Below are positions 719 through 31,613 of a stretch of DNA of 32,000 bases, in pieces. Below the pieces are notes generated by a model that was not told the DNA's origin, ran no database searches, and worked only from the letters and a program-made list of their open reading frames with translations. The DNA lies in assembly GCA_964388715.1 (NCBI GenBank), contig CAYMBN010000002.1, positions 31,441-63,440 of the forward strand, given 5' to 3'. The translations under genes and the position numbers were made by a program. Each line of letters begins with the position of its first letter. The stretch's first letter is position 1. Source of the stretch: an uncultured Methanosarcinales archaeon. GTDB lineage: Archaea > Nanobdellota > Nanobdellia > Woesearchaeales > CAYMBN01.

Positions 719-1726
719 TTATTGGATTAAATTTCCACCATCTATTCCGCCTGAAACTACTTTACTAACAATGTCTGAAATTGGACCTCCACCACCACTT
801 CCTATTAGTGCTCCAATTGCACTACCTACAAATCCTGCTATGCGAGCTTGTTGTTTCCCTCTTCTAGCTATTTTGTCTAACATATAATCAATTTCCCATT
901 CTAGATTTTTAAGAGCTTCAATAACATATTTTGGTTTACTAGAGTTTAGCTTAATCTGAAGATCCTTTAAGCTCGTTTTTAATCTTTTATGTTTACCATA
1001 TCTTGGTGCGATATTATATCTATCTTGAAGATAATCTACATTTATTTTCTTTACATTTTCATTATATTTGAGCAATGAGTTAATAATTGAATTGTATAAT
1101 GTTGTTAAAGCACTGAAAGCATATTTTTTTCTTGCTTGATCTTTATTTTGTTTTAAATCTTCTATAATTTGATTACCAATTTTCTTGATATTAGTAGAGT
1201 TATTCAGTTCAAGTGTGATGCCATCTGGCATTTCATAAGAGAATCCTTTTAAATCATCATTTCTTTTTGAGTCATCTTTCCCTATCAAATCGTTATAAAT
1301 AACATCAATTGCACTTCCTCCCCATTGTTTACCACGTGAAAAATATCTTAATCTACCAAGAATACTACTTAAATCATATTCATTATGTTTATTCATTTCT
1401 TCTCTTGAGAAAAGGTCAGAAATGTCTTTGTGTAATTTTGTATTATTTGTCCAGTATCTTAATATTTTTGATTTAGGAATGGATTTAGTTCCTTTTTTAG
1501 TCTTTTTTGGAATTGTAATTTTTTTTGGGTTAATGTGATTTAATGTTAATTCAGAATAGATTGTTCGAGAACTTTGATCTTTGTCTTCATGTCTATAACT
1601 TAAAGAAGGATGAGTAAAACAATTGCCAGCAGTAGTGTTTACTAGGTTTGTAAGAACTTGTGCAGGAGTATAACTACCAGCACTGTGTTGTCCTGGAACA
1701 TAATTGTCTATAACAAAACCCCCCAT
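719..1726 (-). CDS. hypothetical protein with C-terminal glycine-zipper hydrophobic tail
   Basis: 335-aa ORF with GAGGT about 8 nt upstream of the ATG. There is no signal peptide and I recognise no family motif. The C-terminus is IAGFVGSAIGALIGSGGGG..., with repeated GxxxG spacing. Confidence 0.6.
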   Translation of the reverse strand: MGGFVIDNYVPGQHSAGSYTPAQVLTNLVNTTAGNCFTHPSLSYRHEDKDQSSRTIYSELTLNHINPKKITIPKKTKKGTKSIPKSKILRYWTNNTKLHKDISDLFSREEMNKHNEYDLSSILGRLRYFSRGKQWGGSAIDVIYNDLIGKDDSKRNDDLKGFSYEMPDGITLELNNSTNIKKIGNQIIEDLKQNKDQARKKYAFSALTTLYNSIINSLLKYNENVKKINVDYLQDRYNIAPRYGKHKRLKTSLKDLQIKLNSSKPKYVIEALKNLEWEIDYMLDKIARRGKQQARIAGFVGSAIGALIGSGGGGPISDIVSKVVSGGIDGGNLIQ

Positions 1727-2123: not shown

Positions 2124-3836
2124 ATGAGAATTATTAAAAAAAAGATGGTTAAAGCAAATCTTAATGATTATAATAAGACTTATAAAAGATTTAAGTGGAA
2201 AGATGTTTATAATGAGATTGAATGGTTTGGTAAAAATAAGTTGAATATAGCTCATAATGTGATTGATAGACATTCTAAAACATGGAGAAAGAATAAAGTT
2301 GCTCTTTGTTGGGAAGGTTATTCTGGGGAAACTAAAAAATATACCTTTTTTGAACTTAAAAAACTTACAAATCAATTTGCTAATGTGTTGAAAAAGTATA
2401 AAATAAAAAAAGGAGATAGAATTTTTATTTTTTTACCAAGGATACCTGAACTTTATATCTCTTTTATAGGAATTCTAAAAATGGGTGGAATCGCAGCTAC
2501 ACTATTTGCTGCATTTGGTCCTGCTGCACTTAAAGATAGGTTAAAAGATAGTGGAGCAAAAGTTATAATTACAAATTCTCAATTAAAAAAGAGAATCTAT
2601 AAAATAAAAAAAGATCTGCCTGAGTTAAAACATGTTATTGTTGTTGATAAACCTAATAAAAAAGGTGAGATTGATTATCAAAAAGAAATGGAAAAAGCAT
2701 TAAGTAATTTTAATGTAAAAGAAATGAAACTTGATGATTATGCATTTATGCTTTATACTTCTGGGACAACAGGTAAACCAAAAGGTGTTGTTCATACTCA
2801 TAGAGCTGTGTTACAAGAACATATTAGTGCAAAGTGGGTTTTAGATATAAGAGATAATGATACTTATTGGTGTACTGCTGATCCTGGTTGGGTTACTGGG
2901 ATTGCTTATGGAATTATAGGTTCATGGTCAAATGGTGTTACTTCAATTGTTTATGAAGGTAGGTTTAGCCCTGAAAAATGGTATTCTATTATTGAAAAGT
3001 ATAAGGTTAATATTTGGTATACAGCACCAACTGCGATTAGAATGTTAATGAAAGCAGGTAATAGTTTAGTAAAAAAATATGATTTAAGTAGTCTAAGACA
3101 TTTGTGTAGTGTTGGTGAACCATTGAATCCTGAAGCAATTAAGTGGGGATTAAAGGTTTTTAAGTTAGGTTTTCATGATAATTGGTGGCAAACTGAGACA
3201 GGTAGTATCTTGATTGCGAATTATTCTTGTTTAAATATTAAAATTGGGTCAATGGGTAAACCTTTTCCAGGTGTTAGGGCAGCAATAGTTGATAAAGGTT
3301 TTAATGAACTTGGACCAGGTAAGATGGGAAATCTTGCAATAAAACCTGGTTGGCCTTCAATGATGAAAGTGATATGGAAGAATAAGAAAAGGTATAAAAG
3401 TTATTTTAAAAAATCTTGGTATATTACTGGAGATAAAGCTTATAAGGATAAGGATGGTTATTTTTGGTTTGTAGGTAGGGGTGATGATGTTATTAAGACT
3501 TCTGGTGAGCGTGTAGGGCCATTTGAAGTTGAGAGTGCATTGGTTGAACATCCTGCAATTGTTGAAGCAGGTGTTATTGGTAAACCTGATTCTTTAAGAG
3601 GAGAAATAATTAAAGCATTTGTTATACTTGGAAAAGGTTATAAAGCTTCTGATAAGCTTAAGAAAGATATTCAACATTTTGTTAAAAGACATTTAGCTGG
3701 TCATGAATATCCACGTGAAATAAAATTTGTATCTTCTTTACCTAAAACAAGAAGTGGTAAGATTATGAGAAGATTACTAAAGGCAAGGGAGTTAAATCTT
3801 CCAACAGGAGATACTTCAACTTTGGAGGAATATTAG
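2124..3836 (+). CDS. acs: AMP-forming acetyl-/acyl-CoA synthetase (ACS family)
   Basis: 570 aa. AMP-binding signature YTSGTTGKPKGV, ACS-like N-terminus (NIAHNVIDRH) and C-terminal SGKIMRR motif. AGGTGG lies 5 nt upstream of the ATG. Confidence 0.85.
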   Translation: MRIIKKKMVKANLNDYNKTYKRFKWKDVYNEIEWFGKNKLNIAHNVIDRHSKTWRKNKVALCWEGYSGETKKYTFFELKKLTNQFANVLKKYKIKKGDRIFIFLPRIPELYISFIGILKMGGIAATLFAAFGPAALKDRLKDSGAKVIITNSQLKKRIYKIKKDLPELKHVIVVDKPNKKGEIDYQKEMEKALSNFNVKEMKLDDYAFMLYTSGTTGKPKGVVHTHRAVLQEHISAKWVLDIRDNDTYWCTADPGWVTGIAYGIIGSWSNGVTSIVYEGRFSPEKWYSIIEKYKVNIWYTAPTAIRMLMKAGNSLVKKYDLSSLRHLCSVGEPLNPEAIKWGLKVFKLGFHDNWWQTETGSILIANYSCLNIKIGSMGKPFPGVRAAIVDKGFNELGPGKMGNLAIKPGWPSMMKVIWKNKKRYKSYFKKSWYITGDKAYKDKDGYFWFVGRGDDVIKTSGERVGPFEVESALVEHPAIVEAGVIGKPDSLRGEIIKAFVILGKGYKASDKLKKDIQHFVKRHLAGHEYPREIKFVSSLPKTRSGKIMRRLLKARELNLPTGDTSTLEEY

Positions 3837-3838
3837 GA

Positions 3839-5194
3839 ATGAATCTTAATCATTTTTTTAATGCAAAAACAATAGCAATTATTGGTGCTTCTCGTGACCA
3901 AAATAAAGTTGGTCATGTTATATTTAGAAATTTTATTGATAATAAATATGATGGAAAGGTATATCCTATAAATCCTCATGCTGATCATATTTTAGGGCAT
4001 AAATGTTATAAATCAATATTAAATATCAAAGATACTATTGATCTTGTTGTTATTGCTGTTCCTTATAAATTTGTTTTAGATGTAATAAAAGAATGTGGAA
4101 AAAAGCATGTTAAAAATGTTATTATGGTGACTGCTGGTTTTAGAGAAGTTGGTAATGTTAAGTTAACTGAGAAACTAGAAAAGTTATTACAAAAATATAA
4201 AATTAAAGTTATTGGACCAAATTGTCTTGGTACTTTTAATGCATATTCAAAATTAGATACTTTATTTTTGCCACATTATAAATTACAAAGACCTAAGGAA
4301 GGTGATATTTCTTTTATTTCACAGAGTGGAGCTGTTGGTTCTGCTATATTGGATCTTGCATCAAAAGAAGGATATGGTTTTGCAAAATTTATTAGTTATG
4401 GTAATGCAATTAGTGTTGATGAATCTGATATTATAAAATATCTTAATGATGACAAAGAGACAGGTGTAATTTGTGCTTATATTGAAACTATTAAAAATGG
4501 AAAGAAATTTATAGAAGTGTGTAAAAAAGCAACTAAGCCGATAATTATTATGAAAGGTGGAATTACTAACGAAGGTGGTAAAGCTACTCTCTCACATACT
4601 GGTTCTTTAGCTGGTTTAGGAGCAATTTATGAAGGTGTTTTTAAACAATGTAATGTAATACATGCTTGTAGTTTAGAAGAAATGTTTAATTTTGCTTGTA
4701 TATTAGAAAAGTCAATTAAACCTAAAGGGAAAAGGGTTCAAATTATTACTAATGGAGGGGGCTATGGGGTTTTGAGTACAGATGCAGTAGTGGAAAATGG
4801 TTTATCAATGGCAAAGTTAGGCAAGGTGACAATATCTAAATTAAAAAAACAATTTCCACCAATAGTTATTGTAAATAATCCTATGGATTTGATCGGTGAT
4901 GCTACAACAAAAAGGTATAAAACTGCAATTGAAGCATGTTTTGATGATGATAATGTTGATATTTTGCTTGTTGTATTGTTGTATCAAACTCCGTTATTAA
5001 CAACAGATATTGTTGATGTTATTTCTGAGTTTAATTCAATGCATAAAAAACCAATAATTGTAGCTTCAACAGGGGGAGAGTTTACAGAACTTTTAAAAAA
5101 ATCATTGGAAAGTAATCGTGTTCCTTGTTATACTTTTCCAGAAAATGCTGTTAAAGCAATAAAAAGGTTAGTTGAGTTTTATAATCTTGATTAG
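3839..5194 (+). CDS. acdA: acetate--CoA ligase (ADP-forming) alpha subunit (CoA-binding plus succinyl-CoA-synthetase-like domains)
   Basis: 451 aa. The N-terminal IAIIGASRDQNKVG CoA-binding Rossmann motif is followed by the SQSGA and GHTGSLAG-like (LSHTGSLAG) phosphohistidine loop. Confidence 0.8.
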   Translation: MNLNHFFNAKTIAIIGASRDQNKVGHVIFRNFIDNKYDGKVYPINPHADHILGHKCYKSILNIKDTIDLVVIAVPYKFVLDVIKECGKKHVKNVIMVTAGFREVGNVKLTEKLEKLLQKYKIKVIGPNCLGTFNAYSKLDTLFLPHYKLQRPKEGDISFISQSGAVGSAILDLASKEGYGFAKFISYGNAISVDESDIIKYLNDDKETGVICAYIETIKNGKKFIEVCKKATKPIIIMKGGITNEGGKATLSHTGSLAGLGAIYEGVFKQCNVIHACSLEEMFNFACILEKSIKPKGKRVQIITNGGGYGVLSTDAVVENGLSMAKLGKVTISKLKKQFPPIVIVNNPMDLIGDATTKRYKTAIEACFDDDNVDILLVVLLYQTPLLTTDIVDVISEFNSMHKKPIIVASTGGEFTELLKKSLESNRVPCYTFPENAVKAIKRLVEFYNLD

Positions 5195-6477
5195 GATAAT
5201 TCTATAATAAAAAGGCCTATTAAGGCAATTGGAATAATATATCTTAATAGGTATATTACAAAAAATGGAACTTTTGTTTTAACATTTTTGTTTATTTCTT
5301 GTAAAAGTGTTTTTGGTTTAAATGACCATGCAAAAACTAAACATATAATTAATGCTGATAAAGGAGTAAACAAAGAACCAAATAAATAATCCATTATATC
5401 AAGGAAAGGTTTTCCTAAAACAGTTAAATTGACACCAGCATAGCTTAGTGCAGAAGGTAAACCTACTAAAATAAGGAATATTGAAATTGCAATAGTTGAT
5501 TTGTTTCTTTTAAATTTAAAATCGTCAATAAATGTTGTAACACCAATTTCAATCATTGATAATATTGATGTGAGAGCACCAATGAAAAGAAGTAGGAAAA
5601 ATATTGCACCAAATAATTGACCTAGAAACATTGTTCCAAATATCTGTGGAAGTGTAATAAAGGCTAGTTCAACTCCTGCAGCAGGGTTGGATCCAAATGC
5701 AAAAACAATAGGAAATATAACAAAGCCAGCAAGTAATGCTACAAAAGTGTCTGCTGTTGCTATTTCAATAACTGACACAGGAACATTTTCTTTCTTTTTT
5801 GCATAACTTCCAAATGTTAAGAAAATTCCTGTTCCTGCTGATAGAGAAAAAAATGCTTGACCAATTGCTAGTAACCAAATTCTTGGATTTTTTAATAAAG
5901 GTAAATTGGGTGTAAGATAAAATTTAACTCCTTCAATTGCATTTGGTAATGTTAGAGCTCTTAGTAAAAGTACCATCAAGAGAACTATTAATAAAGGTAA
6001 TAAGTATTTACATGTATTCTCAATACCTTTTTTAATACCTTTATGTATAATTATTGCTCCAATTATTAATGTAATCACAAAAAAAATAATTGGTGAAGAT
6101 GAAGAGGTAAACATATTAAAATTAGGAAATTTTACAAATGAAAATACAAAATATGCAAGTGTCCATCCTGCAATAACAAGATAATAACTTAAGACTAATA
6201 AAACAGTTAATATTGGAATTAAACCAAGATATTTTAATTTTGGATTTGCTTTTTTAAAACAGGTTAAAACAGAACCTTGATATTTTCTTCCTATAGATAA
6301 TTCAAGAAGCATGATAGGTAATCCAAAGAAAATAACTCCAATTAAATATGGGATAAGAAATGCTCCTCCACCATTTTCTCCAACAAGATAAGAAAATCTC
6401 CAAATATTACCAAGACCAATAGCAGAACCAATGCTAGCTAATATTAATCCAAACTTTGACCAATGTTCACGTCTCAT
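5191..6477 (-). CDS. sodium-dependent transporter, NSS/SNF family
   Basis: 428 aa, polytopic. The N-terminus W-SKFGLILASIGSAIGLGNIWRFSYLVGENGGGAFLIPY is the hallmark NSS TM1 motif. Confidence 0.85.
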   Translation of the reverse strand: MRREHWSKFGLILASIGSAIGLGNIWRFSYLVGENGGGAFLIPYLIGVIFFGLPIMLLELSIGRKYQGSVLTCFKKANPKLKYLGLIPILTVLLVLSYYLVIAGWTLAYFVFSFVKFPNFNMFTSSSSPIIFFVITLIIGAIIIHKGIKKGIENTCKYLLPLLIVLLMVLLLRALTLPNAIEGVKFYLTPNLPLLKNPRIWLLAIGQAFFSLSAGTGIFLTFGSYAKKKENVPVSVIEIATADTFVALLAGFVIFPIVFAFGSNPAAGVELAFITLPQIFGTMFLGQLFGAIFFLLLFIGALTSILSMIEIGVTTFIDDFKFKRNKSTIAISIFLILVGLPSALSYAGVNLTVLGKPFLDIMDYLFGSLFTPLSALIICLVFAWSFKPKTLLQEINKNVKTKVPFFVIYLLRYIIPIALIGLFIIELS

Positions 6478-6562
6478 AATTACCTCTTTTTAATTAGTAT
6501 AGTTGTATGCTTATTTAAATATTATGGAAAGGTTTATATAATTTGGTTCAATTAAAACCAGT

Positions 6563-7192
6563 ATGAAAATCCTTACAGAAGTTAAGGCTGAAAAACTTAT
6601 TTCAAAGTATTTACCTATTGCAAAGAGTGTTCTTGTTAAGAATTTTAAACAAGTTGAGAAGGTTAAGATTAAATTTCCTTTGGTTTTAAAAATAATTTCA
6701 CAAAAAGCTTTACATAAGACAGAATTAAAGGCAATAAGGGTTGTGAAGCAGGAAGAAGATTTGGAAAAAGAGTTTAATGAATTACTTAAATTAAATAAAA
6801 AGAAAAGGCTAAATATGGATGGTATTTTGGTTCAAGAGTTTGTTGAAGGAAAAGAGATAATTGTTGGACTCAAGAAGGATATGACTTTTGGGCATGTTAT
6901 TATGCTTGGTTTAGGTGGAATATTTGTTGAGTTGCTTAAGGATGTTACATTTAGGGCTTGTCCAATTACAAAGGAGGATTCTCAGAGTATGATTAATGAT
7001 TTAAAAGGTAATAAGATTTTATTTGGTTTTAGAGGAGAAAAAGGAGTTAATATTGAATTACTTAAGGAGCTTCTTGTTAAAACTTCAAAGATTCCATTAA
7101 AGAATCAAAAGATAGCTGAGCTTGATATTAATCCTCTTATAATTAATGATAAAAAAGCACTTGTCGTTGATGCAAGGATTGTTCTAGAATGA
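6563..7192 (+). CDS. acdB: acetate--CoA ligase (ADP-forming) beta subunit (ATP-grasp)
   Basis: 209 aa ATP-grasp-like protein (VLKIISQKALHKTE..., VQEFV.G.E..VG). Size and context fit the ACD beta subunit. Confidence 0.7.
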   Translation: MKILTEVKAEKLISKYLPIAKSVLVKNFKQVEKVKIKFPLVLKIISQKALHKTELKAIRVVKQEEDLEKEFNELLKLNKKKRLNMDGILVQEFVEGKEIIVGLKKDMTFGHVIMLGLGGIFVELLKDVTFRACPITKEDSQSMINDLKGNKILFGFRGEKGVNIELLKELLVKTSKIPLKNQKIAELDINPLIINDKKALVVDARIVLE

Positions 7193-8262
7193 TAAAATTA
7201 GATGGAAGTTATTTAGAAGGTGGGGGTCAGATTGTAAGAACAGCTTTAGCTTTATCTGTTTTGACTGGCAAGGCTTTTGAAGTGAACGATATTAGGAAGG
7301 GTAGATCAAAACCAGGGTTAAAAGCACAACACCTTCATTGTATTAAAGCATTGAAAGAATTGTGTAATGCAGAAACTAATGATGTTAAAATTGGTTCAGA
7401 ATATTTGAGATTTATTCCTGGAAAAATTAAGGTGAAAAATTTAAATATTGATATTGGGACAGCTGGTTCAATTACTTTATTGTTACAATCTTTATTGTTA
7501 CCTTGTTTGTTTGCTGGAAAGGGGATTACTTTAAAGATTAAAGGTGGTACTGATGTTAAATGGTCAATGCCTTTTGATTATTTTAATAATGTTTTTGTTC
7601 CACAGTTGGGAAGATTTTGTGAAGATGTTAATGTGAAGCTATTAAAAAGAGGTTATTATCCAAAAGGAGGAGGATTAGTTGAGGTTAAAATTAAACCAAA
7701 GTTTAGTTTGGATAATGGTTTTGAGGATTTGAAAAGAGATGCGTTGAAGAATAATGTAAAAATAAATCTTTTGGATCAAGGTAAACTTGTTCAAATAAAA
7801 GGTATTTCACATGCTTCTCTTGGTTTGGAGGGTGGTAAGGTTGCAGAAAGACAAACAAAATCTGCTAAATTAAGTTTGTTAAAATTAAAAGTTCCAATTA
7901 ATATACAAACTCATTATTCTGATACTTTATCGACTGGTTCAGGAATTACATTGTGGGCGGGGTTTTTGACAGAAGAAGGAAATAATATTGAAAGTCCTAT
8001 TGTTCTTGGTGTAGATTGTTTAGGTGAAAAAGGTAAAAAAGCAGAATTAGTTGGGAAGGAATGCGCTGAGAAATTGATTAAAGAAATTAATAGTGGTGGT
8101 TGTATTGATAAGAATCTTGCTGATAATCTTATTCCTTTTATGATTTTTGGTGGAGAATTTAAGAGTTCTGAAATTAGTAATCATACTTTAACAAATATTT
8201 ATACTGTAGAATGTTTTCTAGGAAATATATTTGATGTTAAGAAGAATATAATTAAAGTTTAG
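7189..8262 (+). CDS. rtcA: RNA 3'-terminal phosphate cyclase
   Basis: 357 aa. GGGQIVRTALALSVLTGKAFEVNDIRKGRSKPGLKAQHL is the RtcA signature, including the catalytic His region. The start overlaps the acdB stop in an ATGA. Confidence 0.9.
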   Translation: MIKLDGSYLEGGGQIVRTALALSVLTGKAFEVNDIRKGRSKPGLKAQHLHCIKALKELCNAETNDVKIGSEYLRFIPGKIKVKNLNIDIGTAGSITLLLQSLLLPCLFAGKGITLKIKGGTDVKWSMPFDYFNNVFVPQLGRFCEDVNVKLLKRGYYPKGGGLVEVKIKPKFSLDNGFEDLKRDALKNNVKINLLDQGKLVQIKGISHASLGLEGGKVAERQTKSAKLSLLKLKVPINIQTHYSDTLSTGSGITLWAGFLTEEGNNIESPIVLGVDCLGEKGKKAELVGKECAEKLIKEINSGGCIDKNLADNLIPFMIFGGEFKSSEISNHTLTNIYTVECFLGNIFDVKKNIIKV

Positions 8263-9280
8263 CTAGATTAATATCATCATAAAGTTCTGCTGTAATGTTC
8301 TTAATAAGTATTTTTTCATGATCAGATAACTTTGATTTTCTCATACTACTTATTATTTGTTGATATGTTTGTTCTGCTTCTCTAATTTGTCTTGCTTTAA
8401 TAAAATCTCTACATTCATCAATTAATCTATAAATATCAAGATGGTGTGTTGTGCTCATCATATTTTCGAAAGGGATTTGTTTTGTTTTTTGGCCAATTCC
8501 GAGAATACTTTCTTTTGATTTTCCACTGATATCATGACTTTTTTTATTTAGAAAATCAAAATTGCCTCTAAGTTGTGATATATTTTTTTCTAATTTTTCC
8601 TTTTCTTTGTTTAATTCGGCAATATTTTCTTTGAGTTCTTTGGTTTTGTTTATTTGTACCAGCTTTTTTTCACTTTCTTTTGCTTGTTTTTCAATTATTT
8701 TTTCAGTTTCTTCTATCTTCGTTAGGTCTACTTCTATTTGTTTTTGTTTTAGGTCTAGTTTATATTCTAATGTTGAAAGCTTTTTTTCTTTTGGAGATAC
8801 TTTTGATTCCCTTTTATTTAGATCTTTTTCAAGAATTTTTAACTTCTTTTCTTTTATAACTAATTGTTCCTCAAGATTGTCTAATTGGATTTCTTTCTTT
8901 CCTAAAAATTCTGACCTTTTTTTGATACCCATTTTGTCTTCTTTCATTTCTTTTCTAAGAAATTCAAGTTCGATCTTTTTTGTTTCTATTTGTTTGTCTA
9001 GTTTATCAATTTGTTTTTCTTTTTTACCTTTCTTTTCAACTAGAACTTTTTTAGATTTTTCTTTAGAGATTCCAGGTGCTTCAGGAATCATAGAATCATC
9101 AAGAATATTTTTAGGAACTTTAATTATTTTTGGAATTTTCGGTAATTTAGGAAGCTTTGGTATTTTTGGGATTACTTTTACTTTCTTTTTTACTTTGAAA
9201 AGATTCATTACCTTATGTACCTTTTTTGGTTCTGGTATTGATTCCATTAATTTGTCAATGTCACTCTCTTTTATTGCCAT
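8252..9280 (-). CDS. Lys/Glu-rich coiled-coil protein with N-terminal PK(I/L) repeats
   Basis: 342 aa. It has an IPKIPKLPKLPKIPKIIKVPK repeat (9110..9172), then about 200 aa of heptad-like KE-rich sequence. I recognise no family. Confidence 0.55.
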   Translation of the reverse strand: MAIKESDIDKLMESIPEPKKVHKVMNLFKVKKKVKVIPKIPKLPKLPKIPKIIKVPKNILDDSMIPEAPGISKEKSKKVLVEKKGKKEKQIDKLDKQIETKKIELEFLRKEMKEDKMGIKKRSEFLGKKEIQLDNLEEQLVIKEKKLKILEKDLNKRESKVSPKEKKLSTLEYKLDLKQKQIEVDLTKIEETEKIIEKQAKESEKKLVQINKTKELKENIAELNKEKEKLEKNISQLRGNFDFLNKKSHDISGKSKESILGIGQKTKQIPFENMMSTTHHLDIYRLIDECRDFIKARQIREAEQTYQQIISSMRKSKLSDHEKILIKNITAELYDDINLAKL

Positions 9281-21588: not shown

Positions 21589-22671
21589 TTAAATCATCAT
21601 GATATTTAAATTCTTGAATTCTTTATCTAACATTTCTTTTGTTTTCTTTGTTATAGAACCAGGTGTTACAAATAAAGCAGGCAGTTTTTTAAGATTTGCT
21701 TTAACAATTGCAGTTGATAAATCTCCTTCATTACAACGTTTCTTATTTTTTGCCTTACAATAATAATCTAATGTTCCAATTGGTGTTGGTACTGAAATCA
21801 TTAAATCTATTTCAGAGTTACGTTTTACAATTTCATAATCATTTATTTCAATATCTTTTTGTTTGAATGTTTCGTGAATTTTCTTAAAAAAGGAATCTTG
21901 CTCTACTTCAATTCTTTTTTCTATTGTTAACAGTTGTTCCTGTTCACTTACTTTGACTACCTCTTTTTTTGGTTTTCTTGTTTTTTGCACTTTTTCAAGT
22001 TTTTGTTTTTCTTGATCAATCTTTTTCTTAATATCTTCTAGTTCTTTCTTTTTACTCTCAAGCTCATCTTGCTTTTTCTTGTCTAATTCTAATTTTTCTT
22101 TTTTCTTTTTTTCTAATTCAAGTTTTTTCTGCTTTTCTCTTGGTTTTATTTCTTGTTCTTTCTTTAAATCTTTTTTAGTTTCTTCTTTAACTTCTTCAAC
22201 TTTTTTGATCTCTGGTTCAGGTTTTTTGATTTCTTTTGGTTTTAATATTTCCTTGATTAATTCTGAGGATTCTTCTTTGTCACAAAGATACCATTTCCAA
22301 AAAACTTCTGATTTATCTTTAATCTTAACATTGAGTTGTATAGCAAAATCATTTATATTTCCTAAAGAAACTCTCATTAAAGGTGATAGTTGGGAATTTC
22401 TTAGTATCTTTTTTTCTTTTAGTAAATCATAAGCTTTTTTGTCTTGGTTATTAAAATGTTCATATAACATTTTTAATTTTTCTTCTTGTCCCTCTACATA
22501 ATATAATGGAGAACTGCCAATGTTAGCCTTTGAGATTAATAATTTCTTTTTTCCAACTAATTCAGAAAGATAAGCTCCTGCAAAGGTAAGATCAAGCTTT
22601 AATTCTCTTTTTATTTGTGTAGGTAGTAAAGGGCCTTTCTCTTTAACTAAATTATAGATTTTATCTAGCAT
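21589..22671 (-). CDS. hypothetical protein: N-terminal winged-helix-like region, KE-rich coiled coil, C-terminal restriction-endonuclease-like (Mrr-type) region
   Basis: 360 aa. The C-terminal pattern EIDLMISVP...YYCKAKNKK...ALFVTPGSITKK resembles the PD-(D/E)xK Mrr catalytic core. Domain calls are by eye only. Confidence 0.4.
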   Translation of the reverse strand: MLDKIYNLVKEKGPLLPTQIKRELKLDLTFAGAYLSELVGKKKLLISKANIGSSPLYYVEGQEEKLKMLYEHFNNQDKKAYDLLKEKKILRNSQLSPLMRVSLGNINDFAIQLNVKIKDKSEVFWKWYLCDKEESSELIKEILKPKEIKKPEPEIKKVEEVKEETKKDLKKEQEIKPREKQKKLELEKKKKEKLELDKKKQDELESKKKELEDIKKKIDQEKQKLEKVQKTRKPKKEVVKVSEQEQLLTIEKRIEVEQDSFFKKIHETFKQKDIEINDYEIVKRNSEIDLMISVPTPIGTLDYYCKAKNKKRCNEGDLSTAIVKANLKKLPALFVTPGSITKKTKEMLDKEFKNLNIMMI

Positions 22672-26419: not shown

Positions 26420-26444
26420 TCTATAAAGAGAGGTGAATTATAAA

Positions 26445-27353
26445 ATGAAAAAATTGTTTGTTTTCTGTTTGATGTTAGTTTTAGCTTTTAGTACAGTAAC
26501 AGCCGAAGATGATTCTGTTACTTTGTGTCCTGCTGTATGTGTAGGAACATGGCAAGCAGTTGATCACGTTTGTGTGTATGAAGAATGTGCTTCTGGTTGT
26601 ACAACTCCACAAACAGAAGAAGAATGTAATGCAGGATTAGTAGTAGAACCTGAAGAAGTTCAAGAAAATCTTGAGGTGGAAACAACAACAGAAACTCCTG
26701 AAGCAGATACAACTGTAGAAACTACTGAAGTAGAAACAACAACAGAAACTGAATTAGTAGGTGAAACTGGCGATGAAGAAGTTGTTACAACAATAGAAGC
26801 TCCACATCCAGAGTTAGCTGATTCAGATGAACCTTCAATTCAGGTTAAAAGAACTAATCCTGGAATTGCTGGTGAAAAAGAAGCAGAGATTATATTTGAT
26901 ATTGTAAATGTAGATATGGCTCATAAGTTAGAAGCATTTTTGATTTGTCAAAGTCCTGATGACACTGTTGTATCATCAACAATAAGTGCTGGTTCAGGTA
27001 GTGGTGCTCAGTATGTAAGTCCAAAGTTTACAATTAATGAGGCACCTACACAAAAGTCAATGTCTATTACTTTGGAATCAGATACTCCTGGAAATAAACA
27101 TGCAACTTGTTCAGTAAAATATACTTTATTTAAGGAAGAAGATGGAAAAAAGTTGTATGTTGCAAAAGATGGAACTTACACTGAGAAAAGTGGAAATGCC
27201 TTAAAAGGAGAAAAGAGCTTTGAAAAAGATGTTGGATTTGATCCAATTGGAACTGTGCAGCAGGAAGGAAAGTCAAAAAAGAAAGGTATTCCTGGATTTA
27301 CTTTGTTAGGAGTATTAAGTGCTTTAGTAGTGGCTTATTTGATTAAAAGATGA
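26445..27353 (+). CDS. secreted Cys-rich / acidic Thr-Glu-repeat protein with a PGF-CTERM-like sorting tail
   Basis: Signal peptide MKKLFVFCLMLVLAFSTVTA. GAGGTG lies upstream of this ATG, and the ORF-track start 26433 is a GTG 4 codons earlier. There are six Cys within about 35 aa, then VETTTET repeats. The C-terminus is KKKGIPGFTLLGVLSALVVAYLIKR. Confidence 0.8.
   Translation: MKKLFVFCLMLVLAFSTVTAEDDSVTLCPAVCVGTWQAVDHVCVYEECASGCTTPQTEEECNAGLVVEPEEVQENLEVETTTETPEADTTVETTEVETTTETELVGETGDEEVVTTIEAPHPELADSDEPSIQVKRTNPGIAGEKEAEIIFDIVNVDMAHKLEAFLICQSPDDTVVSSTISAGSGSGAQYVSPKFTINEAPTQKSMSITLESDTPGNKHATCSVKYTLFKEEDGKKLYVAKDGTYTEKSGNALKGEKSFEKDVGFDPIGTVQQEGKSKKKGIPGFTLLGVLSALVVAYLIKR
26676..26750 (+). 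repeat. in-frame imperfect repeats encoding VETTTET / VETTE
   Basis: GT(G/A)GAAACAACAACAGAAACT occurs at 26676..26696 and 26730..26750, with a shorter GTAGAAACTACT unit between them. Confidence 0.7.
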
Positions 27354-27823
27354 ACAAGTATTTTTTTTATTCTTTTTTTTTAATTATTTTTATTCTTGTT
27401 GTTTCTGATTACTTATTTTTAAGTAAAATAATTGCTTCACAAATAAGTAGTATATTGAATTTTTTTGGTTATAATACTATTGTTAATAATCTTGTTTATA
27501 TTAATGAATATCATGTAACTAAGTTGTGTACTGGGATATATGCAGTTGCTGTTTTTTTAGGTTTGTTAATTCCTCTGAGATTTAGTGTTAAGAAGAAAAT
27601 TTTCTATGTGGTTGGTAGTGTATTTTTGATTTATGTATTAAATTTGCTTAGAATTATCATTGTATTGGTCTTAAATATGCAAGGAATTAGTTGGTTTGTA
27701 GCTCATAATATTATTGGAAGAGGACTAGCATTTATTGTGTTGGTTTTAATGTTTTTAGGGTTATTTAGGCAAATTCCTGAACTAAAGGTGGAATTTGACA
27801 AAATATCCCTTTTAAAGCGTTAA
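27350..27823 (+). CDS. minimal exosortase/archaeosortase-family protein
   Basis: 157 aa with 4-5 TM helices. Family-hallmark residues appear in order: Cys60 (KLCTG), Arg101 (NLLRIII), His119 (VAHNIIGRG). ATGA overlap with the PGF-tail gene. Confidence 0.65.
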   Translation: MNKYFFYSFFLIIFILVVSDYLFLSKIIASQISSILNFFGYNTIVNNLVYINEYHVTKLCTGIYAVAVFLGLLIPLRFSVKKKIFYVVGSVFLIYVLNLLRIIIVLVLNMQGISWFVAHNIIGRGLAFIVLVLMFLGLFRQIPELKVEFDKISLLKR

Positions 27824-27882
27824 ATTTAAAAATGGATGCAGAATTATAAGAATAGAAGGGCTGTTATGACTATTCGCAGCAT

Positions 27883-27990
27883 GGGGCTGTGGGGTAGCTT
27901 GGTTTATCCTTTCTGGTTTGGGACTAAAAAAGCAAAAAACCAGATGACCCCGGTTCGAAATTTAAAAAAACGAAAGTCCGGGCAGCCCCA
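27883..27990 (+). tRNA. tRNA-Pro (anticodon UGG) with two introns (37/38 and T-loop 59/60)
   Basis: Acceptor GGGGCUG/CAGCCCC plus A. D arm with A14, G18G19 and A21. Anticodon stem UCUGG/CCAGA and loop UU-UGG-G[16 nt, 27923..27938]A. T stem CCCGG/CCGGG and T loop UUCGAA[17 nt, 27960..27976]U. Both introns sit in bulge-helix-bulge motifs. Confidence 0.85.
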
Positions 27991-28000
27991 TTTAAGAAAA

Positions 28001-28276
28001 ATGGCAAAAACAAAAATAGACAAATTAAAAAGTGCAAAGCGTTTTGGTGCTCGTTATGGAGCAACACTTAAACATAAATTTGCTAAAATTGAACAAGTGC
28101 AAAGAGCGTTACATAAATGTCCTTATTGTAGTTTTAAAAAAGCAAAAAGAATTAGTAAGGGTATTTGGGAATGTAAAAAATGTAATGCTAAGTTTACTGC
28201 AAAAGCTTATACTATTGGTAAGGCAATTAAATTGGAGAATGTAAAGCCTGTTGAAGAGGAAGGTACTGAAAAATGA
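28001..28276 (+). CDS. rpl37ae: 50S ribosomal protein L37Ae (eL43)
   Basis: MAKTKIDKLKSAKRFGARYG...CPYC...WECKKC zinc ribbon (91 aa). The ORF-track extension back to 27836 reads through tRNA-Pro and is rejected. Confidence 0.9.
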   Translation: MAKTKIDKLKSAKRFGARYGATLKHKFAKIEQVQRALHKCPYCSFKKAKRISKGIWECKKCNAKFTAKAYTIGKAIKLENVKPVEEEGTEK

Positions 28277-30287: not shown

Positions 30288-30686
30288 ATGGATAATTCAT
30301 TTGGTCCGCACCTAACAATTGATGCTCGAGGTTGTAATAGAAAAAAAATAACTAGTTTAAGTTTTATTTATGAATTTCTTAATAAGTTTCCAGAAGCAAT
30401 TGATATGGAAAAGATGTCTCTTCCTACAGTTGTTCCTTGGAAAGATGACTGGTCAAAAACACCAGGCATTTCTGGATTTGTAATGATAACAACAAGTCAT
30501 GTTAGTATTCATACTTTTCCTGATGATGATTATGTTTTCTTTGACATTTTTTCATGTAAACATTTTAATGTTGAAAGGGCAAAGGATTTAATCTTGGAAA
30601 TGTTTGAGGCAAAAACAGCTGATGTGAACATTGTTAAAAGGGGTTTAGAGTTTAGAAAAGAACAATTAATTGCAGAAAGAAATTGA
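30288..30686 (+). CDS. pyruvoyl-dependent decarboxylase of the SpeH/AdoMetDC family (substrate uncertain)
   Basis: 132 aa. GPHLTIDARGC... and ITTSHVSIHTFPDD correspond to the SpeH self-cleavage and active-site block, which is usually ESH.SIHTWPE. AGGTGG lies 6 nt upstream. Confidence 0.7.
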   Translation: MDNSFGPHLTIDARGCNRKKITSLSFIYEFLNKFPEAIDMEKMSLPTVVPWKDDWSKTPGISGFVMITTSHVSIHTFPDDDYVFFDIFSCKHFNVERAKDLILEMFEAKTADVNIVKRGLEFRKEQLIAERN

Positions 30687-30752
30687 TGAATCTGCTGATT
30701 TCTTATTTTTAAGAGATAAATTTTTAAATATACGTCTTCTTTTTAAGTAAAC

Positions 30753-31613
30753 ATGGGGGGAAAAACTAATTTTGGAGATTTGACTGAAGAAAATTCTAGT
30801 TTGGAGAATTCTAAGATAGTTATTGTTCCTGTGCCTTATGACGAGACAAGCACTTGGATCAAGGGTGCTGATAAAGGACCTGATGCAATAATTGAAGCTT
30901 CAGCTAATATGGAACTTTATGATATTGAAACTGATTCAGAAGTGTATAAACAAGGGATATTTACTGACAGTGATGTTATTGAAAAATCTTCTGATGAAAA
31001 AATGGTTAGTGCTGTTAAAGAAAGAGTTTTAAAATATTTTGATGATGGGAAATTTACTGTTGTGATTGGAGGAGAACATTCTGTTAGCTTAGGAGCAATT
31101 CAAGCTCACAAGGAAAAGTTTGAAGATATTTGTGTTTTACAATTAGATGCACATACTGATCTTCGTGATGAATATCTTGATTCAAAATATAATCATGCTT
31201 GTGTTATGTCAAGAGTAAAAGAATTATGTCCTATTGTGCAAGTAGGGGTAAGAAGTATGGATTCTAGTGAGAAAGAGAATATGGACAAAGAAAATGTTTT
31301 TTTTGCAAAAGATGTTTGTGATAATGATGGTTGGGTTGATAAGGTTATTTCAAAACTTTCTGAGAAAGTGTATATTACTATTGATCTTGATGTTTTTGAT
31401 CCGTCAATAATGTCTTCAACAGGGACACCTGAGCCAGGTGGTTTGTTGTGGTATGATGTATTGAAGTTATTGAAGAGTGTTTGTAGTGAAAGGAATATTA
31501 TTGGATTTGATGTTGTTGAATTATGTCCTAATGATAATAATAAAGCACCTAATTTTTTAGCTGCGAAATTAATATACAAACTATTAAGCTATAAATTTGA
31601 GGGAGGAAAATAA
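30753..31613 (+). CDS. speB: agmatinase (ureohydrolase family)
   Basis: 286 aa. Mn-binding motifs GGEHS, LDAHTDLRD and DLDVFDPS. Confidence 0.88.
   Translation: MGGKTNFGDLTEENSSLENSKIVIVPVPYDETSTWIKGADKGPDAIIEASANMELYDIETDSEVYKQGIFTDSDVIEKSSDEKMVSAVKERVLKYFDDGKFTVVIGGEHSVSLGAIQAHKEKFEDICVLQLDAHTDLRDEYLDSKYNHACVMSRVKELCPIVQVGVRSMDSSEKENMDKENVFFAKDVCDNDGWVDKVISKLSEKVYITIDLDVFDPSIMSSTGTPEPGGLLWYDVLKLLKSVCSERNIIGFDVVELCPNDNNKAPNFLAAKLIYKLLSYKFEGGK

Follow-up and report, generated by a model that had tools for sequence, protein, structure and literature searches.

In a 32,000-nucleotide stretch of archaeal DNA (hereafter the window), two overlapping genes at positions 26445 to 27823 of the forward (+) strand, on which all features of the pair lie, form what we interpret as a dedicated, translationally coupled archaeosortase-substrate cassette of a Woesearchaeota-type (DPANN) archaeon, a reading to which we assign a probability of approximately 0.75. 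The first gene (26445..27353) is an open reading frame (ORF) of 302 amino acids (aa) from its ATG and encodes the putative sortase substrate, and the second (27350..27823) encodes a 157-aa protein of the exosortase/archaeosortase family with five transmembrane (TM) helices and a C-terminal amphipathic helix. The two ORFs share an ATGA start/stop overlap at 27350..27353 (junction AAA AGA TGA AC), as described in the original prediction made from the sequence, the sortase ATG occupying 27350-27352 and the substrate TGA 27351-27353. Inspection of the sequence at the junction found no Shine-Dalgarno-like sequence ahead of the sortase ATG, which fits translational coupling with the substrate gene. 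The substrate gene is preceded by a Shine-Dalgarno-like GAGGTGA site (26430..26436) lying 8 nucleotides (nt) 5' of its ATG at 26445. An in-frame GTG at 26433 was considered as its start codon and rejected because it falls within this site, which makes the ATG at 26445 the likely start.

The 157-aa protein had been predicted to be archaeosortase-like, and family hidden Markov models (HMMs) bear this out: it scores 52.5 bits on the exosortase/archaeosortase signature TIGR04178 (cutoff 23) and 26.2 on Pfam PF09721 (Exosortase_EpsH), a narrow pass over the gathering score of 25.7. TIGR04178 is likewise matched by all 27 sequences of an alignment (A1) composed of the window enzyme and 26 relatives. 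The only invariant columns of A1 are C60, R101 and H119, the three residues and the order proposed at the outset, and in a wider set of 77 aligned sequences the Cys is present in 76 of 76, the Arg in 77 of 77, the Asn in 75 of 77 and the His in 72 of 77. These residues belong to the three motifs by which Haft et al. defined the family (PMC1569441), namely Cys-x-Gly (C60-T-G62 within KLCTG, 27527..27535, with the Cys as putative nucleophile), Asn-x-x-Arg (N98-L-L-R101 within NLLRIII, 27641..27652) and His-x-x-x-Gly (H119-N-I-I-G123 within VAHNIIGRG, 27704..27718), and the Cys, Arg and His were restated as the proposed triad in Haft 2023 (bioRxiv 10.1101/2023.06.07.544157). Neither of the two refuting outcomes that the original prediction had named for the enzyme, failure on family HMMs and Cys, Arg and His out of register with the catalytic positions, was observed. 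Automatic annotation would already call this enzyme an "exosortase/archaeosortase family protein".

An AlphaFold2 (AF2) model of the sortase, calculated with the alignment of relatives, has a predicted local distance difference test (pLDDT) value of 94 and a predicted template modelling score (pTM) of 0.85. It comprises five long helices, at the upper end of the four to five TM segments first proposed, together with a beta-hairpin at residues 45-56 (extracytoplasmic) and the C-terminal amphipathic helix. In this model C60 lies at the beginning of helix 58-73, after which comes a strongly basic loop (R77-K83, RFSVKKK) predicted to be cytoplasmic by the positive-inside rule, while R101 lies in the outer part of helix 80-110 and H119 at the start of helix 115-141. 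The modelled topology agrees with the published one, in that Cys, Arg and His would all lie towards the outer face, each on one of three successive helices.

The pairing of enzyme and putative substrate is supported because the same overlapping cassette is kept in the nearest relative. When 1.84 billion cluster representatives were searched exhaustively with HMMER (E <1e-3), 84 relatives of the sortase were returned, of which the sole close one, P0070, has 38% identity (E 3e-20) and the next an E-value of 1e-10. A word-index homology search with the sortase returned only the protein itself, and the window sortase gave no match when GTDB representative genomes were scanned; the scan with P0070 located its gene on contig CAZJZJ010000015.1 (L008) of the metagenome-assembled genome (MAG) GCA_964550525.1. 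Directly upstream of the P0070 gene, again with an ATGA overlap, lies the gene for a protein of 679 aa. Over its last 188 residues this protein shares 42% identity with aa 123-302 of the window substrate (E 7e-50), and it ends in an APGF tail (C-terminus APGFALLATLMGLGLALVFKRKQ / IEAPGFALLATLMGLGLALVFKRKQ). The flanks of the L008 pair encode Cys-rich secreted proteins and an RDD protein, unrelated to the Trm5 and L37Ae genes that flank the pair in the window, and the two genes therefore travel as a unit. Consecutive genes for enzyme and target, and target homologues with a different C-terminus, are among the criteria listed for sorting signals and dedicated systems (bioRxiv 10.1101/2023.06.07.544157), and the genes are consecutive, with the ATGA overlap and in different neighbourhoods, in both the window and L008, two genomes in all.

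The putative substrate ends in a tripartite tail, KSKKKGI-PGF-TLLGVLSALVVAYLI-KR (27270..27350; full tail KSKKKGIPGFTLLGVLSALVVAYLIKR), in which the PGF (codons 27291-27299) stands directly against the hydrophobic helix (284-301 in the AF2 model) with no spacer and is followed past the helix by KR and the stop codon. A motif abutting the helix is the layout described for PGF-CTERM (bioRxiv 10.1101/2023.06.07.544157), and the window protein carries this layout together with a signal peptide, as PGF-CTERM proteins do. The original description of the tail as PGF-CTERM-like holds for this tripartite layout and fails at the level of the curated model: TIGR04126 (PGF-CTERM, cutoff 24.5) gave no match to the window tail and 51.5 bits for a synthetic canonical control, and a scan of the L008 tail, the whole of the family member P0005 and the window tail was negative with this model at E-values up to 0.1-10. 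The best-scoring signal model is Heimdall-CTERM (NF045529), with 20.0 bits for the tail alone and 14.5 for the whole protein against a cutoff of 24, followed by 15.7 bits on Loki-CTERM (NF033507) against 19.9. The tail is therefore PGF-type by motif and architecture and outside every curated signal family. When stop-to-stop ORFs of at least 60 aa were scanned in the 32 kb window and a 5.8 kb extension of it (L001), a single one had a C-terminus in which PG[FYW] occurs together with a hydrophobic helix at the end and basic last residues, and this ORF is the one directly upstream of the window's only exosortase-family gene.

Upstream of the tail, the parts that had been read from the sequence at first were all found again. 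The protein begins with a Sec-type signal peptide predicted by inspection of the sequence (aa 1-20, MKKLFVFCLMLVLAFSTVTA; 26445..26504) that has its hydropathy peak at aa 10-13 and is modelled by AF2 as a helix at 2-18. A six-Cys module (aa 28-61, CPAVCVGTWQAVDHVCVYEECASGCTTPQTEEEC; 26526..26627; pLDDT <50) and an acidic, Thr/Glu-rich linker (approximately aa 62-129; 26628..26831; pLDDT <50) follow, the latter predicted to be disordered and containing 20 Asp or Glu, 15 Thr or Ser and no Lys or Arg in aa 63-125; AF2 predicts disorder over aa 22-112. An imperfect 27-nt tandem repeat (26679-26760, approximately 2.7-3 copies) underlies the VETTTET-type portion of the linker; this repeat could differ in length among strains and is identical in four other assemblies. 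The globular region is a beta-sandwich, immunoglobulin-like (Ig-like) domain (aa 130-270; 26832..27254) with the motifs KRTNPG, SPDD and GSGAQY, modelled at a pLDDT of approximately 90-96. Foldseek matched this domain to generic Ig-like, macroglobulin and PapD-like sandwiches only (E ~1e-4, TM-score at most 0.47), and Pfam and NCBIfam models gave no match in the 302-aa protein. On the model, the domain looks like a typical surface module, and the fold search yields no specific function.

The substrate has 68 homologues in metagenomes and MAGs of Woesearchaeota/Nanoarchaeota (E 4e-186 to 4e-25). Their common parts are a signal peptide and a domain of approximately 140 residues in which KRTN-G, C168, D172, AQY, C222 and other positions are invariant; a YREIRLDKTVPF segment, a CPEGKxxC motif and a C-terminal helix are usual further parts. 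The six-Cys module is not common to most members, and the L008 orthologue has other Cys-rich repeats before the domain. The domain itself (KRTNPG, SPDD, GSGAQY and YREIRLDKTVPF; homologues P0003-P0069) represents a widespread Woesearchaeota/Nanoarchaeota surface family for which there is no Pfam or NCBIfam model. Within the family of 69, PGF tails are confined to three members, the window protein, the L008 protein and P0005, and the other 66 have non-PGF C-termini that are mostly plain membrane anchors, a few having no obvious terminal helix. P0005 is encoded on another contig of the MAG that contains L008, where the next gene also specifies an APGF tail. With an HMM derived from A1, no sortase was detected within 5-10 kb of four non-PGF members (L007, L092, L093, L094), although this HMM finds the enzymes of the window and L008 with E ~1e-48.

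Further observations concern this family and the related MAG. The two further APGF-tailed genes of the MAG with the L008 cassette lie in tandem on contig L005 (5001-5684 and 5766-7220) and have near-identical EAPGFALFATLMGLG tails, and these two tails together with that of L008 would give the sortase of MAG GCA_964550525.1 at least three candidate substrates; the count of APGF/PGF tails is one in 32 kb plus 5.8 kb of the window organism and at least three in the MAG. This MAG (L005, L008) is titled 'uncultured Methanosarcinales archaeon'; its label or its binning looks doubtful because the contigs carry a Woesearchaeota-type surface family and a G+C content of 36% in L008. Most members of the family (P0009-P0062) have a recurrent GIPxW before the helix and YLLGK(T/S)SRK after it, and this conserved type of anchor may in its own right serve as a signal for sorting or retention. 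Non-PGF members are also regularly preceded by a gene of approximately 290 aa for a DUF7343/MarR-like helix-turn-helix protein (L007 4016-4918; L092 9038-9898; L093 8866-9747), which suggests a conserved pair of regulator and surface protein that is absent from the window.

These features suggest the following mechanism as the most likely one. The 302-aa protein would be exported through its Sec signal peptide, and its C-terminal helix would act as a transient membrane anchor, with the PGF at the outer face and the KR on the cytoplasmic side. The co-translated enzyme would recognize (I/A)PGF at the outer face of the membrane; these steps are read from the architecture of the sequences. Family membership and motifs further suggest that the thiol of C60 would attack with the assistance of R101 and H119, and that the protein would be cut at or next to the PGF and the helix removed. 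A membrane lipid would then probably receive the new C-terminus, a step proposed solely by analogy with ArtA of Haloferax (PMC9263693; PMC6098224).

Simple release after cleavage is a serious alternative to this lipidation. The enzyme would in that case be a sheddase or maturation protease that cuts the PGF tail and frees the beta-sandwich protein from the cell, perhaps to act as a soluble factor or one that binds a host, with no lipid attached. DPANN archaea often lack lipid synthesis, and most paralogues of the window protein keep a permanent anchor, in place of which a cleavable tail could serve release. Moreover, one-step lipid transfer by archaeosortases is unsettled even for ArtA (bioRxiv 10.1101/2023.06.07.544157), and among the window ORFs scanned with Pfam we saw no genes resembling PssA or PssD, the Haloferax partners (PMC9263693). 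That absence counts for release and against a lipid-anchoring cassette, but it carries little weight because the window is only 32 kb. In the one characterized system, ArtA of Haloferax volcanii, cleavage is linked to lipid anchoring (PMC9263693; PMC6098224), and on balance we regard release with no lipid as unlikely but not negligible.

Other observations weigh against a dedicated cassette as such. The enzyme reaches none of the cutoffs of the named subfamilies, and the tail is below those of all curated sorting-signal models, PGF-CTERM included. The KSKKKG that precedes the PGF is Lys-rich and is not the Thr/Ser-rich stretch that is typical ahead of the motif in archaeosortase targets (bioRxiv 10.1101/2023.06.07.544157). 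Comparison of the sortase with the PDB by sequence and by fold gave nothing meaningful, and the family has no solved structure. The cassette lineage is known from two genomes, so that its conservation is counted on n=2. Finally, we considered 81 metagenomic loci with more distant sortase relatives (26-41% identity over the best-matching segment). Neighbours with a tripartite tail of IPGF, IPGY or PEF type occur at L009, L012/14, L022, L050, L058 and L067, with tail scores reaching up to 19.3 bits against the Loki-CTERM cutoff of 19.9, but most of the 81 loci have no tailed neighbour within 5 kb, and adjacency therefore does not hold throughout this portion of the superfamily. At one of these loci, L009, large Vgb-like beta-propeller surface proteins are encoded on both sides (3263-4741 and 5513-8887) of a 36%-identical sortase relative, and their tails (MIPGYPIES... 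and PIPAYSSKE...) represent a related signal on different cargo.

Several of the same observations bear on a second alternative, in which the tail is a permanent anchor, the sortase acts on proteins encoded elsewhere and the adjacency of the two genes is incidental. The mostly ordinary anchors of the 66 non-PGF family members and the sub-cutoff scores of the tail would agree with this, and compact DPANN genomes crowd unrelated genes together, as illustrated by the end of Trm5 25 nt upstream of the cassette and the start of the L37Ae ORF 12 nt downstream. Incidental adjacency is nonetheless difficult to reconcile with the recurrence of the pair, the ATGA overlap and the PGF tail in the nearest relative within another neighbourhood. 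The PGF tails of the family are found only in the window organism and the related MAG, both of which have this sortase lineage, and the four non-PGF members that were checked have no sortase in their vicinity. We consider this alternative quite improbable and retain the dedicated cassette as the favoured interpretation.

Judged by its sequence, the enzyme is a short, deeply divergent member of this cysteine protease family whose nearest named relative by score is the catalytic C-terminal half of ArtA. The ArtA model (TIGR04125) is the best of the subfamily models with 53.7 bits, below its cutoff of 75, and the match is limited to positions 105-258 of 271; ArtA controls score 118-249 bits on the same model. 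Cutoffs were missed by wider margins for ArtE (TIGR04124, 41.1 vs 95), ArtH (32.1 vs 200), ArtB (TIGR04144, 24.8 vs 150), heimdallarchaeosortase (NF045528, 34.2 vs 130), pacearchaeosortase (NF033505, 17.6 vs 80), XrtX (36.9 vs 170) and XrtM (22.5 vs 125). The second-nearest relative in the search of cluster representatives, P0071, is a fragment, and its 90% cluster contains P0153, a 315-aa protein named archaeosortase A by the Joint Genome Institute (JGI) and a bona fide ArtA (TIGR04125 118 bits vs 75). Residues 23-152 of the window sortase align with residues 157-288 of P0153 at 33% identity, so that the window enzyme is equivalent to the catalytic C-terminal half of ArtA, the N-terminal helices being absent. 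In a rough neighbour-joining tree the window enzyme groups with P0070, a relative of similarly short format, and the two fall outside the clade of long ArtA sequences.

In ArtA of H. volcanii, Cys173, Arg214 and Arg253 are critical (PMC9263693), and the spacings C60-R101 (41) and R101-R140 (39) in the window enzyme are the same as C173-R214 and R214-R253, a mapping made by spacing only. R140 lies within LFRQIPEL and has an Arg at the same place in P0153; R124, five residues past H119, is an alternative equivalent of Arg253. The original prediction had also held the enzyme to be far shorter than ArtA-type proteins and close to a minimal catalytic core. The enzyme does match only part of the ArtA model, but the size as such is not unusual: curated models have 153 positions for ArtE, 156 for ArtB, 150 for XrtM, 158 for XrtH and 167 for pacearchaeosortase, and 157 aa is small beside ArtA and ordinary for the exosortase/archaeosortase superfamily. 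That the protein is a truncated or split remnant of ArtA, nonfunctional on its own, could be argued from its restriction to part of the ArtA model and of P0153, but we reject this as hardly credible, given a complete ORF whose start overlaps the upstream stop and so leaves no room for an ArtA N-terminal coding sequence, intact catalytic motifs, a compact and confident five-TM fold in the AF2 model, an equally short P0070, several curated subfamilies with models of 150-170 positions, and an identical sequence in four independent assemblies.

Among known systems, the pair most closely resembles ArtA/PGF-CTERM as represented by H. volcanii HVO_0915 and the surface-layer glycoprotein, with which it shares the Cys, Arg and His motifs and a PGF that abuts the helix and is followed by basic residues. 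It differs in the sub-cutoff score of an enzyme devoid of the N-terminal ~104 model positions, in its host, which is a DPANN archaeon and not a halophile or methanogen, and in its organization as an adjacent overlapping cassette, whereas H. volcanii has a single ArtA with nine PGF-motif proteins (PMC6098224). The short archaeosortases and exosortases (ArtE, ArtB, pacearchaeosortase, XrtM, XrtH and XrtX) are of the same size class (150-168 positions) and have the same catalytic-helix core, and pacearchaeosortase likewise comes from a DPANN lineage, yet the window enzyme falls far below the cutoffs of those that were scored (ArtE, ArtB, pacearchaeosortase, XrtX and XrtM). The heimdallarchaeosortase/Heimdall-CTERM system provides the best signal model for the tail, with both tail and enzyme below its cutoffs. 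The pair also resembles the dedicated (one-to-one) systems defined by Haft, among them JDVT-CTERM and the intramembrane protease encoded next to it, in having consecutive genes for enzyme and target, and target homologues of other lineages with a different C-terminus. The enzyme family of JDVT-CTERM differs from that of the window sortase, and a one-to-one relation, which the original prediction had also proposed, is no more than a possibility here, given the two further APGF-tailed genes on another contig of the related MAG.

Short subfamilies and dedicated adjacent sortase-target pairs are thus already known, and the novelty lies in a short, orphan lineage that stands closest to the core of ArtA, in a tail of PGF type that no curated model covers and, within one DPANN protein family, in the switch from a permanent membrane anchor to a putatively cleavable sorting tail. 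If the pairing is functional, it would constitute about the smallest self-contained archaeosortase system, with 157 and 302 aa encoded by two overlapping genes and a confident model, and these properties would make it convenient for heterologous reconstitution and for addressing the question of a one-step transpeptidase. The substrate is a candidate major surface or adhesion protein of this Woesearchaeota lineage. A more speculative proposal, to which we give a modest chance at best, is that the pair represents a new archaeosortase subfamily ("mini-ArtA"), restricted to DPANN archaea and served by a PGF-type signal of its own, that arose when one branch of a normally TM-anchored Woesearchaeota surface family exchanged its anchor for a sortase-processed tail. 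Since episymbiotic archaea of this kind generally lack lipid synthesis of their own, the processed protein would in that case be placed on lipid scavenged from the host or released as a host-contact factor. Were this so, the cassette would offer a compact handle on DPANN-host surface biology.

The cassette is embedded among archaeal housekeeping genes in a window with a G+C content of approximately 30%. According to a Pfam scan of the window ORFs, its upstream neighbours are FEN1, an EamA transporter and Trm5/Taw2, and L37Ae, RpoP, Pcc1, prefoldin beta, UPF0147 and HtpX lie downstream; farther upstream are an S13-S4-S11-RpoD-L13 cluster, LeuRS and a tRNA-splicing endonuclease. The closest LeuRS matches (60-71% identity) are named Candidatus Woesearchaeota or Nanoarchaeota, as are the homologues of the substrate, and the host is assigned to the Woesearchaeota-type DPANN archaea on these grounds. 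Gene order in the LeuRS relatives diverges within a few kb on the downstream side of LeuRS, shortly after NAD kinase in those that retain this gene. The window sequence is present mismatch-free in four other assemblies, with no strain variation among them. Scans for bacterial-type promoters and terminators gave counts at or below the shuffled expectation, the host being archaeal.

Three minus-strand ORFs of 334-360 aa in the window, at 719-1726 (-), 8252-9280 (-) and 21589-22671 (-), have no Pfam match at E <=1e-5. The L37Ae ORF (27836-28276) has approximately 60 residues before its Pfam match and the gene is 136 aa in other assemblies, which places its true start probably downstream of 27836. 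Just past HtpX lies a polyamine/hypusine cluster encoding AdoMet decarboxylase, an arginase-family agmatinase and deoxyhypusine synthase (window 30288-31613 and L001 8855-9835).

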